Positions 19,419 through 61,338 of a stretch of 64,000 bases of DNA are shown here, piece after piece. The notes below the pieces were generated by a model. The model had not been told where the DNA came from and ran no database searches. It was given only the letters and a program-made list of their open reading frames with translations. The position numbers and the translations under genes are program-made. Positions within the stretch are counted from its first letter, which is position 1, and each line of letters starts with the position of its first letter. This DNA is from a virus (lineage: Duplodnaviria; Heunggongvirae; Uroviricota; Caudoviricetes), in IMG/VR virus record IMGVR_UViG_3300006794_000002; one strand, given 5' to 3'.

Positions 19419-20375
19419 TTAGAACGCCGTTGACTCGTCAGTGACGAGTGTCAGATCGAAGATCGGATCACCGTTAAGCGGACGAAGAATCGTCGCCTCG
19501 ACAGACTGCTCGATGTAGTCGCCAGCGTTTAGCGGCGCACCGATCATGTTCCATCGAACGCGAGGAATATCAATCGTCAACTTGTGCTTAAAGCCTCCGC
19601 CGATTGTCTCGCCTTCAAGGTCAAGACTTACTGCGAACTCGCTCTCATTCAAGAACAAGTCGAAGTCATCGTCGTCGGTGAAGTCCATTGTCAACGACAG
19701 GCCAACATCACGTACGCCAAGGGCGGTTCGCTTCCAAGAACGAGTCTTGCGAAGGGTACCAATCCTTTCTACGTTGTTGCCAAGAGTGAACGTGAAGTTC
19801 TTTACGTTCCCAAGGTCAACGCTATCTCGTGAGACAGACGCGCCTGTGAAGTGGAACGGTAGAACATCATCGTAAGACTCAGATGACGTTGATGAGCCAC
19901 GGCTTTCTCGTGTCGTACCTTCTAGTCCCCAAGAAGCGGTGACAATTTCGTTGAATGCTGCGCTGATGTCCAAGGTGTTAATTCGGATACCACCGTAACG
20001 CATTACCAAAATGTCGCCAAGGCTACTTTCGAACGTGAAGGTCGGAGTGCTGGCATTACCCGGCGTAAACGTTGCTGAATACGCGCCGCTTCCAAGGCTG
20101 GAAGGGGTAATAGTGCCAGAGTGAGAAACCGCGCTCTTTAGGAGATTTCTGATTCCTGTTGGAACCAACTCCATATCCATCGAACCTGAGACAGAGTATG
20201 CACTAGGCATAGCAACTGATCGGTCGCGTGATCCACGCAACTGCTCAGGAATGATGTAGTCCCAAGTGCTGTCTACGTTGAAAGCACTTGCGGGTAGGAA
20301 GATAGTTGGGGCAACGGTCGTACCTTCTGTAGATTCGATACCGTAACCAACATATCCCACTGAGGAAAGAGTCAT
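19419..20375 (-). CDS. major tail (tube) protein
   Basis: 318-aa ORF upstream of the chaperone pair. Position is typical of a siphovirus major tail subunit. Confidence 0.5.
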   Translation of the reverse strand: MTLSSVGYVGYGIESTEGTTVAPTIFLPASAFNVDSTWDYIIPEQLRGSRDRSVAMPSAYSVSGSMDMELVPTGIRNLLKSAVSHSGTITPSSLGSGAYSATFTPGNASTPTFTFESSLGDILVMRYGGIRINTLDISAAFNEIVTASWGLEGTTRESRGSSTSSESYDDVLPFHFTGASVSRDSVDLGNVKNFTFTLGNNVERIGTLRKTRSWKRTALGVRDVGLSLTMDFTDDDDFDLFLNESEFAVSLDLEGETIGGGFKHKLTIDIPRVRWNMIGAPLNAGDYIEQSVEATILRPLNGDPIFDLTLVTDESTAF

Positions 20376-20864: not shown

Positions 20865-21553
20865 TACAGTCCTGCCGTTCTTCCTGCTGACATAGAGTAC
20901 ACTGACGTTACCGTACTCTCAGGCATTCCTTCGAATATGTTGGCAACAAAGTACTTACTAATCTGCTCTAGTGCGCCATCCAAGCCTTCCTGATCGAAGA
21001 ACCAGAAAGGTCGAGCGGGCATGTTAACCCATCCCGAACCGGATGCAAACCGCACAGGACCACCGATCTGATTCATGGCCTTAGCGCCCTGAATAGATGC
21101 GGAGAACGTGCGGGAATAAGTTTGACCACTTACATAAGTTTCCCCTGAGTAACCAGCCTCACCCAAGTCACCGCCGCCATATGGCGACTTGTTACCTGTG
21201 CGAAGCGGTGTAGGGTCAATACGGACAGAGAGGTTATTTTTATTCAAACCCCACTTGATAAAGGAGTCGATAGCGCCCCGATAAAGAGCGCCGCTCTGAC
21301 GGAGAATGGGATGGTCAGCGCCGTATCCTCGATCCTGTCGAACCCTCTGAGTATAGGCAGACAGAGGTTTCCATCCACCGACCAGAGAGCCACCAGACGT
21401 GAAGTTGGTTGACCATCTACGTGCTATCGGTGAAACACCAGCAGCCATCAAGAATGGCGAATTGAGTGTCTCATAGGTTCGTCCAAGACCTTTCGCTATG
21501 CTGTTGAATTGAGTATCGACCCAACCCATTCGGTCAACCGTTATCTTGAACAC
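20864..21553 (-). CDS. head-tail connector / tail completion protein
   Basis: 229-aa ORF. ATGA overlaps with both neighbours. Confidence 0.35.
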   Translation of the reverse strand: MFKITVDRMGWVDTQFNSIAKGLGRTYETLNSPFLMAAGVSPIARRWSTNFTSGGSLVGGWKPLSAYTQRVRQDRGYGADHPILRQSGALYRGAIDSFIKWGLNKNNLSVRIDPTPLRTGNKSPYGGGDLGEAGYSGETYVSGQTYSRTFSASIQGAKAMNQIGGPVRFASGSGWVNMPARPFWFFDQEGLDGALEQISKYFVANIFEGMPESTVTSVYSMSAGRTAGL

Positions 21554-22110
21554 TACCCGATCCTGTTGCGCTTATACTTGTACAGAAGATCGACAATCTG
21601 CTCATCGATGTCTTCCACAAGGGCGACTTGATTGAAGTTGGTTCCGCCCCTGAAGAGAGGCTGAAGCAACTTGATAGTCTCTAGTCCGGTTGCGTGTTTA
21701 ATAGGGCCGGGGATCGTGGCGTAGCCAGCGGTGTAGGTCACGGTCCAGATGTATTCTCTGAACCACAGGTTCCTAAACTTGTCTACCCACTCAACCAGTC
21801 CAGCCTTGCCATCAACGATAAGGCCAGAAGGCTCTACGGTTCGAATGTTCTGGTAGACATCAGTACCGTAGATTTCAGAGATTTCAACAACCGGGTACTC
21901 ATTCAAGTACAACTTGGCACGATTGTTTCCTTGAATACGTTCAGTGTATTCAGTAAGTTCGAAATCGTGTTCGGTGTAGTCCTTGATGTTCTGTGTGGCC
22001 GTCTCGATAAAAGTGTCGATATAGGCACCGGCCCCTTCAATCAACTGCCACTGCTTGTCCGTAACAGGAAGAGGCCAGTTCTTTAGTTCTGCGGCTGTAA
22101 TAAATGCCAT
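21553..22110 (-). CDS. head-tail adaptor-like protein
   Basis: 185-aa ORF translationally coupled (TAATG) to the upstream basic ORF. Confidence 0.35.
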   Translation of the reverse strand: MAFITAAELKNWPLPVTDKQWQLIEGAGAYIDTFIETATQNIKDYTEHDFELTEYTERIQGNNRAKLYLNEYPVVEISEIYGTDVYQNIRTVEPSGLIVDGKAGLVEWVDKFRNLWFREYIWTVTYTAGYATIPGPIKHATGLETIKLLQPLFRGGTNFNQVALVEDIDEQIVDLLYKYKRNRIG

Positions 22111-22331
22111 TATGCTGACCTTCTCTTCTTCTTACGCTTCCTATGCCATAGGTTAGTGCGGCGAGCCTTTAACATGGCTACCTTTGCCTTGCCGCGTAGA
22201 CTAAAGTTCACCGTCTTGTATCGACGCTTCGCCGCTGCCGACTTGATTAGGTCGCCCTGCGCCGTCTTCTTCTTGCGGTCTTGGATCAGACGCTTCCGCG
22301 ACTGTGTTGCTGCTTTGATCGCCATTAACAA
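22110..22331 (-). CDS. small highly basic (Lys/Arg-rich) protein
   Basis: 30 of 73 residues are K/R. Its stop overlaps the downstream start (TAATG). Its 5' part overlaps the glycosyltransferase C-terminus, so the start is uncertain. Confidence 0.3.
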   Translation of the reverse strand: MLMAIKAATQSRKRLIQDRKKKTAQGDLIKSAAAKRRYKTVNFSLRGKAKVAMLKARRTNLWHRKRKKKRRSA

Positions 22332-23502
22332 CTTCCTCGACCTTGTTGATAACCATGGTCCTGAAGTTTGACCACTGGTAGTCCTGAACGCGGCTTAGAC
22401 CAGCCTTAGACATTCGCTGAGCCTCGTTAGGGTTTCTTTTGATACGCAGGATAGCCTTCGCAATATCCTGTGGATCAACGTTGCCGTAGCGCGTAGACGA
22501 TTTGTGGACTTCCCAATCTATGATCGGAAGACCAACACCGGCTGGTGATGCTACCTCCCAACCGGCTGCGTATTTCGGAACAACTACCGGAACTCCGCAA
22601 GCCATCGCCTCAGCAGTTGGAAGACCAAAGCCTTCAACCTGAGAAGCGCTGACGAACAGATCGAGCGAATTGTAAATCTCTGCTAGGCCGGGATTCTTAG
22701 GCTCTCCCGTTAGTTCGGGAACGTTAGCGTTAAACTTGTGCATCAACGGGTTGAAGAACGTAATGTCCTGAACTCCGTACATTTCAGCAACCTCTGGAAG
22801 ATTCCAGCCGTCCAGCCAGTAGTGCTGGTAAGGTACCGTGTGCAGATACAGAACAATGTCCTTCTGCTTGTACTGGTGCTTTAGAATGCTCATCGCTTCG
22901 ATGATACGCGGAATCTGCTTGCGACGAACGTTGGTCGCAACGACTCCTACCACGAACTTGCCTTCCCACTTCATCTGCTTACGGACTGCATCGCGCATCC
23001 CGTTGTCTCGTGGAGCGGTGTTGAATACCTCGTGATCTACGCCGTGATAAACGTAGTCAACGTTCTTGCCTAGGTAACGCTTGACAACCTTGGTACCATA
23101 ATCAGTACAGGTAAAGAAGGGCAGGATGCCAAGCATCTTGCGCCAGTCTCTCTGCGCTATCGGCTCTCCCTCAATAGGTACGTATCCGAGAAAACGGTTC
23201 CCATCTGGTATAACGGAAGAGGCCGTGACGAAAGTGCCCGGATCGCACGTCGTATAAACGACATCCGGCCTGAAGTCTTCGATGACGCCGGGAGCGTCGT
23301 GGAAGCCCCAAACGTCGCCATTGTAGCCTGAGGGTGCATAAAAAGCCCCATAATCACTAGTTGGAGTGATGCTTCCGTCAGTTAGACCACCTAGGGAAGC
23401 AACCTCCCATCCTTTACTTTGAAACGCTAGGGCTGCTTCGGCGTTGACTCGTCCGAACCCCGTCTTTAGCATCGGGCTGTCGCCCACTATCAACACGCGC
23501 AT
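22201..23502 (-). CDS. glycosyltransferase, GT-B fold family 1/GT4
   Basis: N-terminus MRVLIVGDS… and the C-terminal GT1 signature VSASQVEGFGLPTAEAMACGVPVVV. Confidence 0.7.
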   Translation of the reverse strand: MRVLIVGDSPMLKTGFGRVNAEAALAFQSKGWEVASLGGLTDGSITPTSDYGAFYAPSGYNGDVWGFHDAPGVIEDFRPDVVYTTCDPGTFVTASSVIPDGNRFLGYVPIEGEPIAQRDWRKMLGILPFFTCTDYGTKVVKRYLGKNVDYVYHGVDHEVFNTAPRDNGMRDAVRKQMKWEGKFVVGVVATNVRRKQIPRIIEAMSILKHQYKQKDIVLYLHTVPYQHYWLDGWNLPEVAEMYGVQDITFFNPLMHKFNANVPELTGEPKNPGLAEIYNSLDLFVSASQVEGFGLPTAEAMACGVPVVVPKYAAGWEVASPAGVGLPIIDWEVHKSSTRYGNVDPQDIAKAILRIKRNPNEAQRMSKAGLSRVQDYQWSNFRTMVINKVEEVVNGDQSSNTVAEASDPRPQEEDGAGRPNQVGSGEASIQDGEL

Positions 23503-23749
23503 TCTTTTCTTCCCTTTCTGTAGCCTCGACCGATTCCTGTACGTACTTGTTTAGATCATTCTCTGTGAAGAGTTTCTTGCCGTCAACGGTTTCATTGAAA
23601 CCCTTGAACCAAGATCGTCTGATCCAATTCTTCTTCTCTACAGGGATTGTCAGCAGCCCACCTTCTGCAACAAGAAGACCGTCGTAGAAGTAAACGATCA
23701 TCTTGGCGTCCATACGACGCTGATGCTTTAGCGTAACTGTTTTGCCCAA
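23414..23749 (-). CDS. hypothetical protein (head module)
   Basis: ORF whose C-terminus overlaps the GT start by ~89 nt, so its end is uncertain. Confidence 0.3.
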   Translation of the reverse strand: MGKTVTLKHQRRMDAKMIVYFYDGLLVAEGGLLTIPVEKKNWIRRSWFKGFNETVDGKKLFTENDLNKYVQESVEATEREEKNARVDSGRQPDAKDGVRTSQRRSSPSVSK

Positions 23750-23761
23750 TTGTTTCTCCTT

Positions 23762-24184
23762 TTAGAAGAACTTCTCTCCGGTCTTCTTTGATGCTTCCAC
23801 CAAGAACATCGGATCAACGCCTTCTGCGAGACTTGATGCATCCTCATAGTCGGTAGGCGGAACCTGACCGGCTGTTTCGAAGATATCACCAGCATCGAAG
23901 GCGTCTCTTACGAGCGTGTCCATTTCTAGCGGTGAAACATCATTCACAATGTTGCCACCAGTATAGACATCGAAATCTCCACCCGCCACCTGAACGGTGT
24001 CGTGGTTTAGTTCGGTAGCCAACTCGTCATTATCAACGTCGTCATGTGACTCTTCGGAAAGAGCGACACGAGCATCTTGATCGTCCTGAACTGGCATTCC
24101 TTCAGCACCGTGTAGGTACTGCTCACTGGCTCGCTCTAACTCAGCGTCATTGCGATCCTGTACATCAACCATTAGTCTCTCCAC
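23762..24184 (-). CDS. acidic protein (possible head decoration / head completion)
   Basis: Asp/Glu-rich 140-aa ORF immediately downstream of the major capsid gene. Confidence 0.35.
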   Translation of the reverse strand: MERLMVDVQDRNDAELERASEQYLHGAEGMPVQDDQDARVALSEESHDDVDNDELATELNHDTVQVAGGDFDVYTGGNIVNDVSPLEMDTLVRDAFDAGDIFETAGQVPPTDYEDASSLAEGVDPMFLVEASKKTGEKFF

Positions 24185-24230: not shown

Positions 24231-25148
24231 TTAAATATCCGGCGTTAGGGTGAAGTTCTGTAGCAACGATGCTGCACCTTCAAGAGCGAAACCGAAGTAG
24301 CCCTTGATGAAGTAGTCAACGCTGTCACGAGTCTTCGCCAGTTCCTCGTACGTCCAATCCTTGTGGACAAGCAAGGTTGCCTTCGAAGCATCGAAGAACA
24401 GAATCTTGCTGTTGTCGCGCCAGTGATTGTCAAGCACGAACGGAAGACTGTCATAAGTCATTACCCGGAAGCCAGCGGCGATTTCCGTCGAGTTGACGAA
24501 TTGCTGCTGAGCCTGAAGCAATGAGTTAATCATCCTCATGACTGGACGAGTTGCAACCGCCATCGTAGCGCCCGCACCAACAACTCCCGTTCCTGATGCT
24601 TCGGCTGCGGCGTCGATAGCCTTGTCTAGCCACTTTAGGCTTAGATAGTCTCCACCAGCATCGACAACCTGACCGGGACCGCCATCGGCGGTGTACAGGC
24701 TAGAGTCGTCGGTAATCTGGTACAGAATACCCTTAATGTCATTGTTACCACCGTTAGCGGTAGCAATGTCCGTAGACAGCCTTTCTACGATTGCTTGCTG
24801 GTGTTCCTCAATGCTTAGCGCCAAAGCGTCAAACGTTGATCCAGCGGCCTCTTGCATAGGGCCAGTGACCTCTCCACGAGTGTACAAGTACTTCATCGTG
24901 TTCGAAACCTTACCGTAAGTGCTGTCCGTAGCAGATGGTAGCGGACCACCATCAATGCTCCAAGATGCACTAGGAAGGCTCAAACGCTGTCGAATGAAGT
25001 ATGTAGCCGTAGCCCATGGTCGCTTGTTGACCGCGTTGTACAAAGTCGGAGACTTTGAAGCGAAGTCACGAATAGCGCCATCGACTACCTCAGGGATAAG
25101 GTACGTGGCAGCGCTTGATGCAAGATCAAGTGCCTTACGAATATCCAT
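24231..25148 (-). CDS. major capsid protein
   Basis: 305-aa ORF after the scaffold/protease gene. Gene order matches an HK97-type capsid module. Confidence 0.55.
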   Translation of the reverse strand: MDIRKALDLASSAATYLIPEVVDGAIRDFASKSPTLYNAVNKRPWATATYFIRQRLSLPSASWSIDGGPLPSATDSTYGKVSNTMKYLYTRGEVTGPMQEAAGSTFDALALSIEEHQQAIVERLSTDIATANGGNNDIKGILYQITDDSSLYTADGGPGQVVDAGGDYLSLKWLDKAIDAAAEASGTGVVGAGATMAVATRPVMRMINSLLQAQQQFVNSTEIAAGFRVMTYDSLPFVLDNHWRDNSKILFFDASKATLLVHKDWTYEELAKTRDSVDYFIKGYFGFALEGAASLLQNFTLTPDI

Positions 25149-26227
25149 TATCTCTTTTTGGTTTCCTCTGCGAGACGAAGGCCAAAGCGCAACTTATCTG
25201 AAGGCGACATGCTCTTCATAAGTTCTGAGAACTCTTGTTCCTCAGCCTTCTTAACTAGAACGTCAGGAGCCGGTGTTGCCGGAATTCTCTCCCTTAGTTC
25301 GTTAATTTCTGCCCGCAACCCGGCAATCTCGCTTGCAGCCTTCTCCAAGATGTCGCTAGCAACTGTCTGAGTATCCTCTGACTTGGTAACGACCTTCTCT
25401 GAAGACTCGGCTGAGGCCGTGTCCGTTGCACCCTCATCATCGCTCAGAACCAACTCAGCGATAAGTGAGGACATTTTTCGATGCATACCGACCAGTTCCC
25501 TGATCTTCTTAGCATCTTCCTTAGTACGCGATGACAGTGCCTTCTCGACAACCTTATCTTCGGCAGTAGTGACTTCTGGTTCTGAAGTTTCCTGTCCTGA
25601 AGCGGCTGCTTCCTTGGCGCTCTCTACGCTCTTCTCTTCTGCTACCTTTTCATCGGTAACGTTCGGAGTGTCTTGTTCTGACATATCTCCCTCGGATGCC
25701 GCATCAGCGGCTTTCTTTAGAACGGTCCCGAATGACGGTGTGTAGATAGGCTTAGTAGTTAAACTTACCTCTTCTAGTGTCGCATCATAGAATGTGCGAA
25801 CACGACCAGCACTCTTTTCGTACTCGTCCTTATAGTCATGGACCTTACCAAACACGCTCATGCCATACTGATAAGGCTTGCCCGTTCTAGGGTTAACCGT
25901 ATCTAGTTTACGCCATAGTTTCTGTGCGCGGTAGTCATCCTGATCCAACTCGACCTCGACACCCAAATCGAAATTCGGTGTGACCCAAGCCTTTACGACC
26001 TCTCCCATTTCTGCGAGAGCGTCGTTCTTGTTGTGCCAGTTCAAAAATGGAACTGGTTGCTGCGCTATTTGCGCGGCGAACTTTGTGACAAGTTCCGGCG
26101 ACAAGCGCTCATTTTGTAGGTCGATCCCTGTTCCGGCTGCTACGCCTTTCAGAATCCATCGGCCATCTTCGGTTGTCGCCTTTTCAAGCGGCATCTCCAA
26201 ATCGAAATCAAACTTTTTCATATCCAC
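25148..26227 (-). CDS. prohead protease / scaffolding protein
   Basis: Globular N-terminal domain, then a long acidic and helical Glu/Lys/Ala-rich region. Sits between the portal and the capsid genes. Confidence 0.5.
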   Translation of the reverse strand: MDMKKFDFDLEMPLEKATTEDGRWILKGVAAGTGIDLQNERLSPELVTKFAAQIAQQPVPFLNWHNKNDALAEMGEVVKAWVTPNFDLGVEVELDQDDYRAQKLWRKLDTVNPRTGKPYQYGMSVFGKVHDYKDEYEKSAGRVRTFYDATLEEVSLTTKPIYTPSFGTVLKKAADAASEGDMSEQDTPNVTDEKVAEEKSVESAKEAAASGQETSEPEVTTAEDKVVEKALSSRTKEDAKKIRELVGMHRKMSSLIAELVLSDDEGATDTASAESSEKVVTKSEDTQTVASDILEKAASEIAGLRAEINELRERIPATPAPDVLVKKAEEQEFSELMKSMSPSDKLRFGLRLAEETKKR

Positions 26228-27618
26228 TATCTGTCACCCTGTTTCGATTGATCCGCCTGATTTGGCGATAACTGCTTGGTCGGAGCGGCGTTCGAAGGGT
26301 TGCGCTGACCAGTGGCAGTCGTTCCGACTCCACTGATTGGTTCAGCCACCATCTGTTGCTCCGCTAGTTTTAGTACCATGTCAATCGGCATGATTCCAGC
26401 AGGAGTCCAGATCATTGGCTTAGAGCCAAGTCCATCTGGAAGGGCTGGCCTACCCATCTCGTTCAAAACGTCATCGATAGTCATTCGACCCATCTTCTGG
26501 TGCTGATCCCAAATGTCAACTTGTTCACGGCGGCGGCGAAGATCGGCTTCGACTGACTCGACAGCGATATCCTCCCATCCGAAGATCGTTTCTAGAAGTT
26601 TGAAGTTAATCTCGTCTTCTATGATGATCTGACGCGGGCGGATAGATTCTGAATGGAAGGCTTCGTTCTGCTCTTTAGAAACAGCGCGGCCTGAGTTTTC
26701 GTGGATACCTAGTTTCTCTAGGTCCACTTCTAGAACCATTGCTATTTCTTGGCGCAGGAACTTACGTCCCTCCATGAACTCCATTTCGACACGAGTAGAC
26801 ACGCTTTTCTCGACCGACACATCTCCTTCGATAAAGAGCGGTCGGTGTGCGTTCTCTGGCCCGGTGTAGTTGGCCTCGATCCATTCGCGTGCGCGAGCGG
26901 CTTCCGCTGCGTCAGCAGTCTTAGCCACGAAGATCGTACCTGTTTGGGCTGCGTTCTTAAAGAACGACTCGTTGTACTCCATTGCGAAGATATCCTGAGC
27001 AACGGAACGCTGTAGGGCGTACAGCGGGCTGATGCCCGTCACATCGCTTTCAGGGTCTTCAAGAGTAAAGTGGAGTATCAGTTCATCTGGATACTCAATG
27101 GCATCGTTATCATTTGCGACAGGACCGTAGCGCCAACGCACTACCTCTCCGCCAATGATGATCGGAGTCATGAATCGAGCATTCAACCGTCGCGCCTTCA
27201 TAGGCGTCCCGTTCAGGCTAAGGATGATGACCCAATAAGACTCACCAAAGATATCTAAGTCCTTGTACGTAAGGCGCAGCAACTTGCGGTACTGCGACTT
27301 TCGGAAGAAGGACATCAGGGCAGCAGACTTAGACTTGTCTACCGCGATAGTTTCTTGCGGATTCGAAGAAACGATGTTGAATCCGCCTGTAGAAAGGAAG
27401 TTAGCCTTGCGGTCAACTGCTGAGCGAATAACAGGGTGCTGTCGGTACATCTCGTAAAAGATGCCCATCTGCCCCTTCTTCTCGTGAACCGCAATGTCGT
27501 TGAATACAGACTTAGCGTTACCAAGTAGAGCAAACTTAGGTCCAAGGCCCGGTGGCGTTATTGTGACTTGCGCCTTTTCTAGTACGACCTCATCGGCCTT
27601 TTTTCTACGTGCTGCCAT
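26227..27618 (-). CDS. portal protein
   Basis: 463-aa ORF directly downstream of the terminase region. Start overlaps the upstream stop. Confidence 0.6.
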   Translation of the reverse strand: MAARRKKADEVVLEKAQVTITPPGLGPKFALLGNAKSVFNDIAVHEKKGQMGIFYEMYRQHPVIRSAVDRKANFLSTGGFNIVSSNPQETIAVDKSKSAALMSFFRKSQYRKLLRLTYKDLDIFGESYWVIILSLNGTPMKARRLNARFMTPIIIGGEVVRWRYGPVANDNDAIEYPDELILHFTLEDPESDVTGISPLYALQRSVAQDIFAMEYNESFFKNAAQTGTIFVAKTADAAEAARAREWIEANYTGPENAHRPLFIEGDVSVEKSVSTRVEMEFMEGRKFLRQEIAMVLEVDLEKLGIHENSGRAVSKEQNEAFHSESIRPRQIIIEDEINFKLLETIFGWEDIAVESVEADLRRRREQVDIWDQHQKMGRMTIDDVLNEMGRPALPDGLGSKPMIWTPAGIMPIDMVLKLAEQQMVAEPISGVGTTATGQRNPSNAAPTKQLSPNQADQSKQGDR

Positions 27619-49632: not shown

Positions 49633-50574
49633 GTGGAAATCCTGATGCCTGACACGAAGAAGTCGGTCTACCAAATCGTCACCGATAAGATCATCGCGCT
49701 ACTGGATGCTGGTACGGTGCCGTGGCGCAAGCCGTGGCGCTCAACAGGTCTGGTCATGCCGGTGTCATCTCGTGGCTATCGATATCGGGGGATCAACGTC
49801 TTCATTCTCGCTGCCACTTCGATGGCTAATGGCTATCGTTCACCAGTCTGGTTGACATTCAAGCAGATCAACGAACTTGGTGGCAAGGTAAACGAGGGCG
49901 AAAAGTCAACGCTCGTTACCTACTGGAAACTTCTGGAAATTGAAGAGCGTGATGCAAATACAAACGAGTTGAAGAAGAAGAAGATTCCGCTACTGCGATT
50001 CTATCTCGTCTTCAATCTCGACCAGACAACTGGCGTTAAGTTGTCGAAGGCCGTTCAGAAAATTCAAGACGCTGCCACCGACGAAGGCACCTACAAGGGT
50101 GGCGTTCGTGAGGAAGACGCTATTGAAGCGGCTGAAGCAATCGTCAAGGGCTACGAGAATGGGCCGCTTGTTCGATTTGGTTCCAACCGCGCAGCCTACA
50201 GTCCAACACTCGACGTTATCGGAATGCCGGACAAGACCGACTTCGATAAGATCGAGGAATTCTACGCCACTGAATTTCACGAGTTCGGTCATAGCACCGG
50301 CCACTCTTCTCGTTTGAATCGTGCTGGCATCACGTCGTTCGACCACTTCGGGTCAGGCCAGTACGCTGACGAGGAACTGATCGCTGAATTGACAGCCGCT
50401 ATGCTCTGCGCTGAAGCAGGGATCGACAACACAATCGAGAACAGCGCGGCTTACATCGCTTCGTGGAAGGCGAAGTTGACAGCCGACCCTAAACTGATCG
50501 TACAGGCCGCTGGCAAGGCACAGAAGGCCGTTGACTACATCACTGGCAAGCAATTTGAAGGAGTAGATGCGTGA
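49633..50574 (+). CDS. ArdC-like antirestriction protein (ssDNA-binding N-domain + zincin metalloprotease-like C-domain)
   Basis: N-terminal ArdC hallmark …GTVPWRKPW…. HEFGHSTGH (HExxH) motif in the C-terminal half. Confidence 0.55.
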   Translation: MEILMPDTKKSVYQIVTDKIIALLDAGTVPWRKPWRSTGLVMPVSSRGYRYRGINVFILAATSMANGYRSPVWLTFKQINELGGKVNEGEKSTLVTYWKLLEIEERDANTNELKKKKIPLLRFYLVFNLDQTTGVKLSKAVQKIQDAATDEGTYKGGVREEDAIEAAEAIVKGYENGPLVRFGSNRAAYSPTLDVIGMPDKTDFDKIEEFYATEFHEFGHSTGHSSRLNRAGITSFDHFGSGQYADEELIAELTAAMLCAEAGIDNTIENSAAYIASWKAKLTADPKLIVQAAGKAQKAVDYITGKQFEGVDA

Positions 50575-57191: not shown

Positions 57192-57497
57192 ATGGGCGCT
57201 GATCTTTATTTGCTAGAGCGCGAACTTCGTGCGAGCGGCAAGATGATTGATCCTGACGACTTCGGACATGACGTGAACGTTGCCGAGTACAGCATTCACG
57301 AATGGTTGAAGTCCGATCAGGCTCAGGAGTTCTTCAGCGACTATCTTGGCTGGTACGACGGATACGACAACTGGCACGAGAACTTCGACGGCGAAGGCCA
57401 CAACATGTATCAAGTCAGCGCCGAGAATATGCTGGCGGCAGTGGCTAAGAAATACAAGGAAGCGTCAGAGACGCTGAAGGGTAGAAAGAAGAAGTAA
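57192..57497 (+). CDS. hypothetical protein
   Basis: 101-aa ORF. Confidence 0.35.
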
Positions 57498-58297
57498 TGA
57501 TTTCAGTATTCGTCAACTCGCAGAACAGCGAAGCGACGAAGCGCAACTACCAGTACGACCTAGATACGTGGTTTCGATATCTCAACGGAGTCCAACCCGA
57601 CGAGAGCAGCGCCATCCAGTACCGAAACTGGCTGGAACTAAACTACGCTCCCTCTAGCGCGGCTCGTATGTTCAACACCGTGAGACAATACTATCGCTTC
57701 ATGGGCGGCGCAAATCCTTTGGAGAGAATCAAGTCCCCAAAGACCGTGAAAAATCGGGTGCCAAAAGTCCCTAGCGATAAGGTTGTCGAGGCGATGTTGC
57801 GGCTTTGCCGTGACCCGCGAGACACAGTTGTTCTGGCGTTGCTACTGAATGGCCTACGGAGTGAAGAGGTTACGCGACTGACGGCTAACGACTGGCAGTA
57901 CGAGCCTCTTTACTCCGCATGGGTAATCAGCGTCATTGGGAAGGGCAACAAGGCCCGTAGAGTCCCTGCAACGGCTGAAACTGTTCAAGCAGTCTCCGGA
58001 TACCTATCTAGGAGAAATCAGTCGTCTGCGTGGCTTGTACAGGCCCGTGGGGGCAATCGAATGTCCACCCGACAGGTCCAGTACGTTTGTGAGAAGTATT
58101 CGGGCGGCAAAATCCGCCCTCACGCCCTTAGGCACCACTATGCTACCCGCTTGGTACGGGCTGGCGTAAACCTAATTGCGGTGCGTGATCTGCTAGGTCA
58201 CGAGGATGTACAGACCACACAGATTTACACTTCCCTTGACTTGGCCGGTATAATTGAAGCAGCAAGGGCAGACCCAAGAAACGAGGTTGGTAAGTGA
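57497..58297 (+). CDS. int: tyrosine recombinase / integrase (XerD-like)
   Basis: C-terminal catalytic signature [39 protein letters not shown] (R…HxxR…Y). The N-terminal SAM-like core-binding region is present. Confidence 0.7.
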
Positions 58298-60414: not shown

Positions 60415-61338
60415 TTGTTAGGATTGATTTTCCTAGTCGTCGGTGTTGTTCTCATCATCGGCGCATTTGTCCCCGCGTGGATTTCTAGCGAGCGGGCGAC
60501 TGGTCCCTCTGCTAAGTCCGTTGGCGGTGGCTGTCTTCTGGCGATTGTAGGCGCACTCGTGATCCTGTTTGGCTTGGGCTTCGCTGAAGTTCCTGCCGGT
60601 CAGGTCGGTGTGGTCACGTCGTTCGGCCAGATTCACAACGAAACACTTGGTCCGGGCCTTCACTGGTTCCCGCCATTCCTGAATAACGTCACCCTGATGG
60701 ATGGTCGTGTTCAGGTCTATGAATTCAAGGATATCTCCGGTGCGTCAAGCGACCTTCAGGAAGTTACCCTGACAGGCATCGTGAACTTCCACCTTGATGC
60801 TGCGAAGGCGTCTGAGATTTATCAGACAGTCGGCGTGGACTACAAGGAGAAGGTCTTCACCCGTCCTGCTGATACGATCCTGAAGAGCATTACGCCTAAG
60901 TTCAAGGCGCAGGATATCGTCGGCCAGCGTGTCACAATCGGCGCTCAAACCGCTGAGGCACTACAGGCTGCGGTCCTTCGTTATGGCATCGTGGTTGACA
61001 GCGTTAACATCTCCAACATTGGCTTGTCGGCTGACTTCCTACAGGCAATCGAGGACAAGGTTAAGGCTGAGCAGGAAGCACAGCGTCAGGAGACGCTCAT
61101 TCGTGTGTCTGAGGCTGAGGCTAAGCAGCGTATTGCTAAGGCAAACGGTGAGGCTGAGGCTACCCGCATCGCGGCGCAGGGCCAAGCGGATGCTAACGCG
61201 CTTTTGAATAGCAGTCTTACCCCTGAACTGATTCAGTGGTCGAGCATTCAGAAGTTGAATCCGAATGTTCAGGTCATCTATCTTCCAAGCACCGGCTCGT
61301 TCATCCTGCCGTTGCCATCGACTGGTGGAGGTCAGTAA
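60415..61338 (+). CDS. SPFH/band-7 (stomatin/prohibitin/HflKC-like) membrane protein
   Basis: N-terminal TM helix, then EVPAGQVGVVTSFGQI…GLHWFPPF… (SPFH core) and a long Ala/Glu/Gln-rich coiled coil. Confidence 0.6.
   Translation: MLGLIFLVVGVVLIIGAFVPAWISSERATGPSAKSVGGGCLLAIVGALVILFGLGFAEVPAGQVGVVTSFGQIHNETLGPGLHWFPPFLNNVTLMDGRVQVYEFKDISGASSDLQEVTLTGIVNFHLDAAKASEIYQTVGVDYKEKVFTRPADTILKSITPKFKAQDIVGQRVTIGAQTAEALQAAVLRYGIVVDSVNISNIGLSADFLQAIEDKVKAEQEAQRQETLIRVSEAEAKQRIAKANGEAEATRIAAQGQADANALLNSSLTPELIQWSSIQKLNPNVQVIYLPSTGSFILPLPSTGGGQ

Follow-up and report, generated by a model that had tools for sequence, protein, structure and literature searches.

A conserved GT4-family glycosyltransferase gene and a small polybasic gene in the late operon of an uncultivated siphophage

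In mycobacteriophages such as Che8, Corndog and Myrna, phage-encoded glycosyltransferases (GTs) glycosylate the capsid and the tail tube, the glycans being placed on the C-termini of the subunits, according to the summaries of Freeman et al. 2023 (Cell Host Microbe 31:1216) in papers that cite it (PMC11256854, PMC11600133, PMC12619734). The GT genes of these phages are reported at a distance from the head genes: those of F1 phages lie close to the genome's 3' end, and cluster O mycobacteriophages carry three tandem GTs together with an O-methyltransferase. A further viral enzyme, B736L of chlorovirus NY-2A, is metal-independent and possesses a long C-terminal helix that spans both of its domains (PMC9614988). 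Here we analyse a pair of genes within a 64,000-nucleotide (nt) stretch of DNA from a virus of the class Caudoviricetes (IMG/VR record IMGVR_UViG_3300006794_000002), hereafter the window, which represents most of the ~78-kb genome of an uncultivated siphophage. The pair consists of a GT gene and, overlapping its 3' end in another frame, an open reading frame (ORF) for a small protein rich in Lys and Arg. Unlike the mycobacteriophage systems, this locus has a single GT, which is a universal core gene of its lineage and lies between the genes for the major capsid protein (MCP) and the head-tail adaptor, without comparable C-terminal tails on the structural proteins.

An intact GT4 enzyme encoded in the head-neck operon

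The GT gene (22201..23502, minus strand) codes for 433 amino acids (aa) plus a stop codon and contains SQVEGFGLPTAEAMACGVPVV. The first-pass annotation, which was made from the sequence without database searches, had assigned the product to the GT4 family and the GT-B fold, and both profile searches and structural modelling agree. The protein matches the Pfam families PF00534 Glycos_transf_1 (E 5.7e-15; 55.7 bits against a cut-off of 26.4) and PF13692 Glyco_trans_1_4 (42.7 bits against a cut-off of 27) and, over residues 1-392, PHROG 2170 (glycosyltransferase; E 5.6e-32). A model generated with AlphaFold 2 (AF2) from an alignment of 31 homologues (predicted local distance difference test, pLDDT, 84.7; predicted template modelling score, pTM, 0.83) is made up of two Rossmann-like beta/alpha halves and a long C-terminal helix, in which the last helix spans residues 377-393 and pLDDT is high to about residue 395; the folded catalytic part therefore comprises residues 1-395 (22318..23502, minus strand). 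Nothing in the model looks like a membrane segment. When the model was compared with the Protein Data Bank (PDB) using Foldseek, the best match was 3oy2_A, chlorovirus NY-2A B736L (E 2e-19, TM 0.70/0.77), followed by MshA, BshA, PimB', WaaG and glycogen or sucrose-phosphate synthases. There were 348 matches at E<=0.001; every match listed is a glycosyltransferase with the GT-B fold, and nearly every one is of GT4 type. B736L is also the top PDB match in a sequence-profile search (E 6.4e-11, residues 1-303).

The residues expected of a working enzyme are in place. The retaining GT4 signature E-x7-E, formed by E290 and E298 in EGFGLPTAE (22609..22635, minus strand), is invariant in 31 homologues of ~48-70% identity. 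The same alignment identifies a second invariant motif, NVRRKQ (N191, V192, R193, R194, K195 and Q196; 22915..22932, minus strand), at the start of the C-terminal domain, along with G15, H153 and many other invariant residues, including those of the N-terminal glycine loop and pocket. The position of NVRRKQ is presumably that of the Arg/Lys pair which binds the donor diphosphate in other GT4 enzymes, and by this analogy the motif is likely to contact the diphosphate of the nucleotide-sugar. The gene thus codes for an intact GT4/GT-B enzyme and, because the catalytic motif and many pocket residues are invariant, the product is almost certainly catalytically active, to judge by its sequence.

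We then considered how widely the gene and its surroundings are conserved. At least 623 metagenomic homologues of the GT can be found in protein databases, nearly all of them with a generic name or none; many come from contigs of 50-85 kb, and one that is 100% identical comes from a contig of 78.5 kb. A GT-profile search of IMG/VR yielded 43 loci, all of which keep the order portal, scaffold, MCP, (p140), p111, GT, adaptor, neck, p158, tube, where p140, p111 and p158 are small proteins named here by their length in the window. This agrees with the earlier placement of the GT inside the head-neck module, with the MCP upstream and the adaptor and neck genes downstream. A search with the MCP profile returned 57 loci in which the MCP is at least ~50% identical to that of the window, and the GT was found in all those that extend far enough downstream. 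The adaptor profile returned only contigs already known to carry the GT and a single further one, L058, whose upstream sequence is too short to show whether a GT is present. Through these adaptor- and MCP-profile searches we found no member of the lineage without the GT. In all, the gene occupies this position in ~60 related public contigs, every one whose sequence extends far enough. MCP relatives at ~30% identity belong to unrelated modules that have none of the genes in common.

Identity to the window ranges from 41 to 70% for the GT, from 49 to 83% for the MCP and from 43 to 74% for the tail tube protein; the portal (36-66%), adaptor (25-58%) and neck protein (23-31%) are more divergent. 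A scan for promoter-like and terminator-like sites revealed no excess around the GT or inside the operon, and so gives no sign of the GT being an autonomous moron cassette. We conclude that the GT is a core gene embedded in the late operon, not a moron. Among GTDB representative genomes there were only generic GT4 proteins, at <=31% identity to the GT, and the search therefore yielded neither a prophage copy nor a clue to the host. Against 50,697 phage records, blastn with the region and tblastn with the MCP each gave no match.

A small polybasic gene at the end of the GT reading frame

The ORF that follows the GT is listed with a TTG start at 22331 and in this form has 73 residues (22110..22331, minus strand). 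Lys and Arg make up 27 of the 73 (37%, and not the 40% given by the first-pass annotation, which was right in calling it Lys/Arg-rich), with an isoelectric point of ~12 and a net charge of ~+25. Read in the +1 frame, the ORF begins within the GT ORF and has 131 nt in common with its 3' end, or 125 nt when counted from an ATG at 22325. Its TAA stop codon shares an A with the ATG of the adaptor gene, forming TAATG (22108..22112, minus strand), which supports the translational coupling proposed earlier. Within the GT codons V-E-E lies a Shine-Dalgarno-like GAGGAAG (22332..22338, minus strand), 6 nt before ATG 22325. To judge by this spacing, ATG 22325 is most likely the start of the gene, and the product probably has 71 residues (22110..22325, minus strand) and not 73. 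In most of the related loci GT codons, F-E-E or V-E-E, likewise provide a GAGGA(A) shortly before a TTG, GTG or ATG.

Homologues of the ORF are present throughout the lineage. In L001 and L003, in which the GT is 70% and 57% identical to that of the window, the +1 frame over the GT 3' end encodes proteins that share the core FSLRGKAK..M...RRT.L..RKR.K. Across the loci there are 40 distinct versions, which can be aligned end to end, and the frame used is +1 in every locus that has an overlap. When a hidden Markov model (HMM) of the family was run against all six-frame ORFs, it identified a single ORF in each matched locus, always at the junction of GT and adaptor; L031 and L118, which have no HMM match, harbour divergent polybasic ORFs at the same junction. 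The stop codon falls between -8 and +3 nt from the adaptor start in ~35 loci, the exceptions being loci that carry an extra inserted ORF. One relative, L074, whose GT is 74% identical to that of the window, separates the two genes altogether: a GT of 392 aa stops 2 nt before a separately called basic gene of 65 aa (P0121, 56% identical to the window ORF), which terminates on the adaptor start; here the two genes stand in a different relative frame.

To see which of the two frames is constrained, we counted substitutions in pairs of loci that differ by 1-30% in nucleotides, using codons with a single change. In the overlap the basic frame has 57 synonymous and 20 nonsynonymous changes and the GT frame 10 and 66, figures that are descriptive counts because the pairs are not phylogenetically independent, although the difference between the frames is large. 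Past the GT stop, the basic frame has 122 synonymous and 22 nonsynonymous changes. As a control, the GT catalytic region has 1669 and 354 in its own frame and 283 and 1920 in the +1 frame, so that the ratio of the GT frame within the overlap is the same as that of a frame known to be out of register. Purifying selection is therefore visible in the GT frame up to the point at which the GT fold ends, and from exactly there on in the +1 frame. Conservation of both frames in the overlap, which had been proposed as a check, was found for the basic frame and not for the GT frame. A dual-coding pair, in which both frames would be constrained, was also considered and rejected, since the GT frame is without constraint there.

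Taken together, the specificity of the HMM, the conserved frame, the Shine-Dalgarno-like sequence and start, the synonymous excess and the arrangement in L074 indicate that the basic ORF is a separate, conserved gene under purifying selection, with the sequence features of one that is translated. The first-pass annotation had offered a choice between a DNA-condensing or virion protein and an overprinted gene. That the ORF is a genuine conserved gene agrees, to that extent, with the first; the direction of the overprint is reversed, because it is the GT tail that lies over the basic gene.

The properties of the GT C-terminus fit this arrangement. Residues 396-433 and the stop codon (22201..22317, minus strand) form an acidic tail with pLDDT <50. 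GT homologues have between 387 and 465 residues, and their tails past the last helix, of 0 to ~70 aa, are acidic, rich in Gln and Ser, variable in length and not alignable; the length of the overlap varies from 0 to ~300 nt. The tail is acidic because it mirrors the Lys and Arg codons of the basic gene. Thus, the "EGQGE" of GT tails is the -1-frame reading of the basic-gene codons for LRGKAK, as illustrated by L003, in which the GT reads ...AEGQGQD and the basic ORF ...SLRGKAKIS. As a side observation, "(I/L)xEGQG(E)" ends or lies within many database GTs (P0007, P0013, P0020 and others), where it is not a GT feature. We conclude that residues 396-433 of the GT are a disordered, unconstrained read-through into the basic gene, and that the overlap is a terminal read-through and not a dual-coding or recoding device. 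We also simulated the tails by keeping each basic protein and redrawing its synonymous codons, and much of the length of the overlap is expected from composition.

Two alternative accounts of the basic ORF have to be set against its reading as a gene. The compositional mirror could be turned round, the ORF being a chance frame that is the Lys/Arg shadow of a functional acidic GT tail. Since GAA and GAG read as AAG and AGG in the +1 frame, such a mirror is expected in any case, and gene callers almost never report the ORF. We nevertheless find this account barely credible: selection is visible in the basic frame and not in that of the GT, loci with unalignable GT tails still have alignable basic sequences, about half of the ORF lies past the GT stop and is equally conserved, and the ORF persists without any overlap in L074, with its stop locked to the adaptor start. 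We give just as little credence to a programmed, prfB-like +1 frameshift at CUU UAG U that would fuse the GT to a polybasic, nucleic-acid-binding C-terminal tail. Such a device would account for the recurrence of the +1 frame in every overlapping locus, and in the window the GT does end in CTT TAG T (22198-22206, minus strand), from which the +1 frame runs directly into SLRGKAK. Among 33 GT stop contexts, however, which differ in sequence and position, only that of the window reads CTT TAG T, and the distance from these stops to the end of the basic gene ranges from 2 to 82 codons, without any shifty context in common. The genes of L074 are free of overlap and stand in another relative frame, and in most loci the basic gene has a plausible Shine-Dalgarno sequence and start of its own. 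The CTT TAG T of the window is probably a coincidence.

Having identified the family, we sought it in existing protein predictions. A word-indexed protein search with the 73-aa ORF of the window gave no match, and a HMMER search of 1.84 billion cluster representatives recovered one true homologue. A family-profile search of 5.77 billion clusters then recovered 14 basic proteins, all unnamed or labelled "hypothetical protein". The contrast between these 14 and the 623 or more GT homologues shows that in most cases the basic gene is uncalled. Itself a core gene throughout the lineage, it is absent from nearly all protein predictions because the neighbouring GT ORF reads through it: gene callers skipped it in both L001 and L003, and the loci in which it has been called have a short GT overlap (32-50 nt). 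One consequence is that hundreds of database GTs carry "C-terminal domains" and an EGQGE motif that are frame shadows and not functional sequence, which offers a practical lesson both for gene calling and for the reading of disordered tails in phage proteins.

Candidate acceptors for the GT and a possible role for the basic protein

The explanation of the locus that we favour overall, and which we hold to be reasonably probable, is that the GT acts on a virion-protein acceptor, that the basic protein is a nucleic-acid-binding factor of the head or neck and that the GT tail is read-through. Under this proposal, the GT would be produced late, together with the structural proteins, would take a host nucleotide-sugar as its donor and would transfer sugar to a conserved acceptor encoded by the phage itself, the likeliest being a virion protein, for example the capsid, the tube or a head accessory protein. 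We favour an acceptor of this kind because of the late co-expression of the GT, its universality, its fixed slot and a level of conservation like that of the MCP and tube. The earlier suggestion of virion glycosylation had been drawn from position. That argument is strengthened, since the GT is universal, always occupies the same slot, matches capsid and tube proteins in conservation and has translational links with its neighbours; virion glycosylation by the GT is a plausible hypothesis.

The basic protein, at ~65-95 aa, with a charge of ~+25 and a predicted helical structure, would be a nucleic-acid-binding factor produced with the head-completion proteins, which would most likely bind DNA, possibly a DNA end, at or near the portal and neck or be co-packaged in low copy. 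The net charge of ~+25 is retained in three homologues of low sequence identity, and the protein has no membrane segment. Expression is suggested to be low, given the weak TTG and GTG starts and the occlusion of the gene by ribosomes translating the GT tail. A bulk role in neutralising DNA charge is less likely, because ~156,000 DNA phosphates at 25 charges per copy would call for thousands of copies. With modest confidence, based on composition and gene position, we therefore suggest that the protein binds nucleic acid, in low copy, in connection with head completion.

Besides the non-independence of the pairs used for the substitution counts, a number of observations weigh against parts of this combined explanation. 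For the acceptor, neither MCP nor tube has a Ser/Thr-rich C-terminal tail in the style of the mycobacteriophages; their C-termini are short and hydrophobic or acidic, and an NFT sequon at the C-terminus of the MCP is not conserved among the loci. The closest structural relative, B736L, binds GDP-mannose, and its acceptor may not be the capsid protein (PMC9614988). Furthermore, a tblastn search with the GT in the 50,697 phage records (E<=1e-5) matched 8 records, none of them a mycobacteriophage. For the basic protein, searches with several versions returned nothing credible from Pfam, PHROG and PDB profiles, and a single-sequence AF2 prediction gives one long helix with a pTM of 0.36, which is weak evidence. 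For the tail, the simulated mean open length of the GT frame is 25 codons against 39 observed, and the window (P = 0.03) and L003 (P = 0.004), though not most loci, are long-tail outliers, so that there may be weak selection for an open GT tail.

Three other functions for the GT can be envisaged. The one that deserves most attention, although we consider it unlikely, is that the enzyme modifies a glycan of the host envelope (lipopolysaccharide core, teichoic acid or exopolysaccharide), masking receptors late in infection against loss of particles to debris or against superinfection. Homologues are indeed annotated as RfaG or "glycosyltransferase involved in cell wall biosynthesis", the structural neighbours of the GT include WaaG, PimA/PimB' and MshA, and virion proteins revealed no acceptor motif. 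Receptor-modifying GTs are, however, normally accessory and host-specific, and this one is universal, fixed in its slot and conserved like MCP and tube. It also overlaps structural genes on both sides, its model has no apparent membrane segment, and the adaptor and neck proteins diverge more than it does, which fits a conserved phage-encoded acceptor better. Glycosylation of modified bases in the phage DNA, as a means of evading restriction, seems to us improbable. Phage GTs of diverse folds are credited with hypermodifying DNA (Pyle 2024, as cited in PMC12619734) and the window has genes of nucleotide metabolism (ThyX and ribonucleotide reductase), but Pfam scans of 20 further large ORFs of the window identified no sugar-activation gene and no hydroxymethylase-type or other sugar gene. 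Moreover, the GT lies in the late head-neck operon and not in a replication module, and its structural relatives are GT4 enzymes and not T4-type DNA glucosyltransferases. Slightly more improbable again is a catalytically idle structural or decoration protein derived from an enzyme, which would suit the location in a structural operon and a conservation like that of structural proteins; against it stand E-x7-E, NVRRKQ, the glycine loop and the pocket, invariant in the 31 homologues as expected of an active enzyme.

Returning to virion glycosylation by the GT, a stronger version of it, in which glycosylation of the virion by a single GT4 is an obligatory, lineage-defining part of particle maturation in a widespread set of environmental siphophages and the basic protein a new kind of polycation that binds the neck or the DNA end, is one we put forward only tentatively, as a possibility on the doubtful side. 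If true, it would extend virion glycosylation well past actinobacteriophages. If the GT does modify virions, the modification would be a core trait of a large uncultivated lineage, with a bearing on particle stability, adsorption and recognition, and with its single enzyme in a fixed context, the lineage would make a clean system in which to study it.

Neighbouring genes and comparison with known systems

The minus strand carries every gene of the region around the GT and the basic ORF, and together they belong to a late structural operon that comprises terminase, portal, protease/scaffold, MCP, p140, p111, GT, basic protein, adaptor, neck, tube and tape measure. In the order of transcription, the GT is preceded by the portal (26227..27618), a 359-aa protease/scaffold-like protein, the 305-aa MCP (24231..25148; PF17236 SU10_MCP, E 2.2e-12), p140 and p111. 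Downstream of it follow the basic ORF, the 185-aa head-tail adaptor or head completion protein (21553..22110; phrog_442, E 1.6e-15; homologues labelled PF24163 HCP), a Neck1-like protein, the 158-aa p158, the 318-aa tail tube protein (19419..20375; PF18906 Phage_tube_2, E 5.5e-35) and a 2001-aa tape measure protein.

The two small genes directly ahead of the GT yielded no credible family in Pfam, PHROG and PDB profile searches. The 111-aa p111 (23414..23749, minus strand) bears the FYDG motif in the form FYDGLLVAE...WIRR.W..G, and its final 89 nt also cover, in another frame, the start of the GT. It is kept in L001 and L003, in neither of which a gene was called, is called at 99 aa in L074 and gives a tblastn match in most loci. 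The overlap with the GT start, again in another frame, measures 59-173 nt in most loci and is absent from L006, and the C-terminal residues of p111 are a frame shadow of the conserved GT N-terminus. The 140-aa p140 (23762..24184, minus strand), which directly follows the MCP, is very acidic (26% Asp plus Glu; net charge ~-28) and ends in a conserved TGEKFF; in size its charge nearly matches that of the basic protein, with the sign reversed. In many loci tblastn did not detect p140, and there the gap between the MCP and p111 matches is ~70 nt.

On the other side of the GT, a few loci carry an extra ORF between the basic gene and the adaptor, at 3197-3670 in L012 (157 aa) and at 6427-6792 in L035/L036 (121 aa). 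The former is Cys-rich, the latter has a YNRAYY...RR motif, and both may be homing endonucleases. These insertions disrupt the otherwise universal coupling of the basic-gene stop to the adaptor start.

Elsewhere, the window carries a cluster of 33 tRNA genes (30313-34453, minus strand), immediately ahead of the terminase and structural operon in the direction of transcription. Together they serve 20 amino acids, with 4 genes for Arg, 2 for Lys, 3 each for Thr and Leu and 2 for Met among them, and 25 of the 33 are confirmed by Rfam; a set of 33 is unusually large for a siphophage of ~78 kb. An Rfam scan found only tRNAs, with none in the region of the GT and basic gene, and no Y-RNA-like family reached its gathering score. 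Near the tRNA array and adjoining the large subunit of ribonucleotide reductase (36544-38541) is a gene for a 534-aa protein with a TROVE domain, Ro60-like and RNA-binding (38609-40213, minus strand; Pfam E 6.4e-19, phrog_850). Other genes code for ThyX (35346-36131), a protein with ArdC-N and zincin metallopeptidase domains of the anti-restriction type (49633-50574), an SPFH/Band 7 protein (60415-61338) and a 266-aa tyrosine recombinase with Phage_integrase and N-terminal SAM-like domains (57497-58297, plus strand). Such a recombinase could point to temperate or Xer-like activity, yet GTDB representative genomes contained no related prophage.

Comparison with described viruses places the parts of this locus in a wider setting. 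In encoding a GT4-like GT-B enzyme, this phage resembles the chloroviruses with NY-2A B736L and PBCV-1 A546L (PDB 3OY2/3OY7). The GT is, however, only 17% identical to B736L, which comes from a eukaryotic giant virus and is not encoded in a head-tail operon. Closer in arrangement are two isolated phages with distant GT4 homologues, Microcystis phage Mae-JY09 (26.7% identity) and Pontimonas phage phiPsal1 (28.7%). As in the window, Mae-JY09 has a GT4 gene after the capsid gene (in the order MCP, 132-aa ORF, GT), followed by neck and adaptor genes, and in phiPsal1 the order is MCP, GT4, methyltransferase, GT2 and a gp6-like neck protein. They differ from the window in that Mae-JY09 has three more ORFs before the adaptor and phiPsal1 adds the methyltransferase and GT2, and both are without a homologue of the basic gene. 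A slot after the capsid gene is thus a recurrent one for GT4 genes, and the premise of the first-pass annotation, that only virion components are usually encoded there, is too strict. In Tetrasphaera phage TJE1 the homologue (25.5% identity) lies instead in a cluster of nucleotide-sugar genes ahead of the terminase. The HMM of the basic family matched none of the six-frame ORFs of Mae-JY09, phiPsal1 or TJE1.

The overlap itself has precedents. Overlapping and embedded genes are familiar from phages, as in lambda Rz/Rz1 and the frameshift products G/GT of the tail chaperone, and like these the GT and basic gene use two frames of the same DNA in a packed late operon. Unlike them, only one of the frames is constrained here, the length of the overlap drifts and there is no conserved frameshift signal. 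The polycationic internal proteins IPI-III of T4 and the adenovirus core proteins VII and mu are thought to bind encapsidated DNA. The predicted basic protein is like them small, very basic and encoded with the head genes, and differs from them in that no sequence or profile similarity to them was found. In summary, what is new at this locus is one unannotated protein family, while its other elements, a phage GT4 that possibly acts on the virion and a terminal overlap between genes, are of kinds that are otherwise known.

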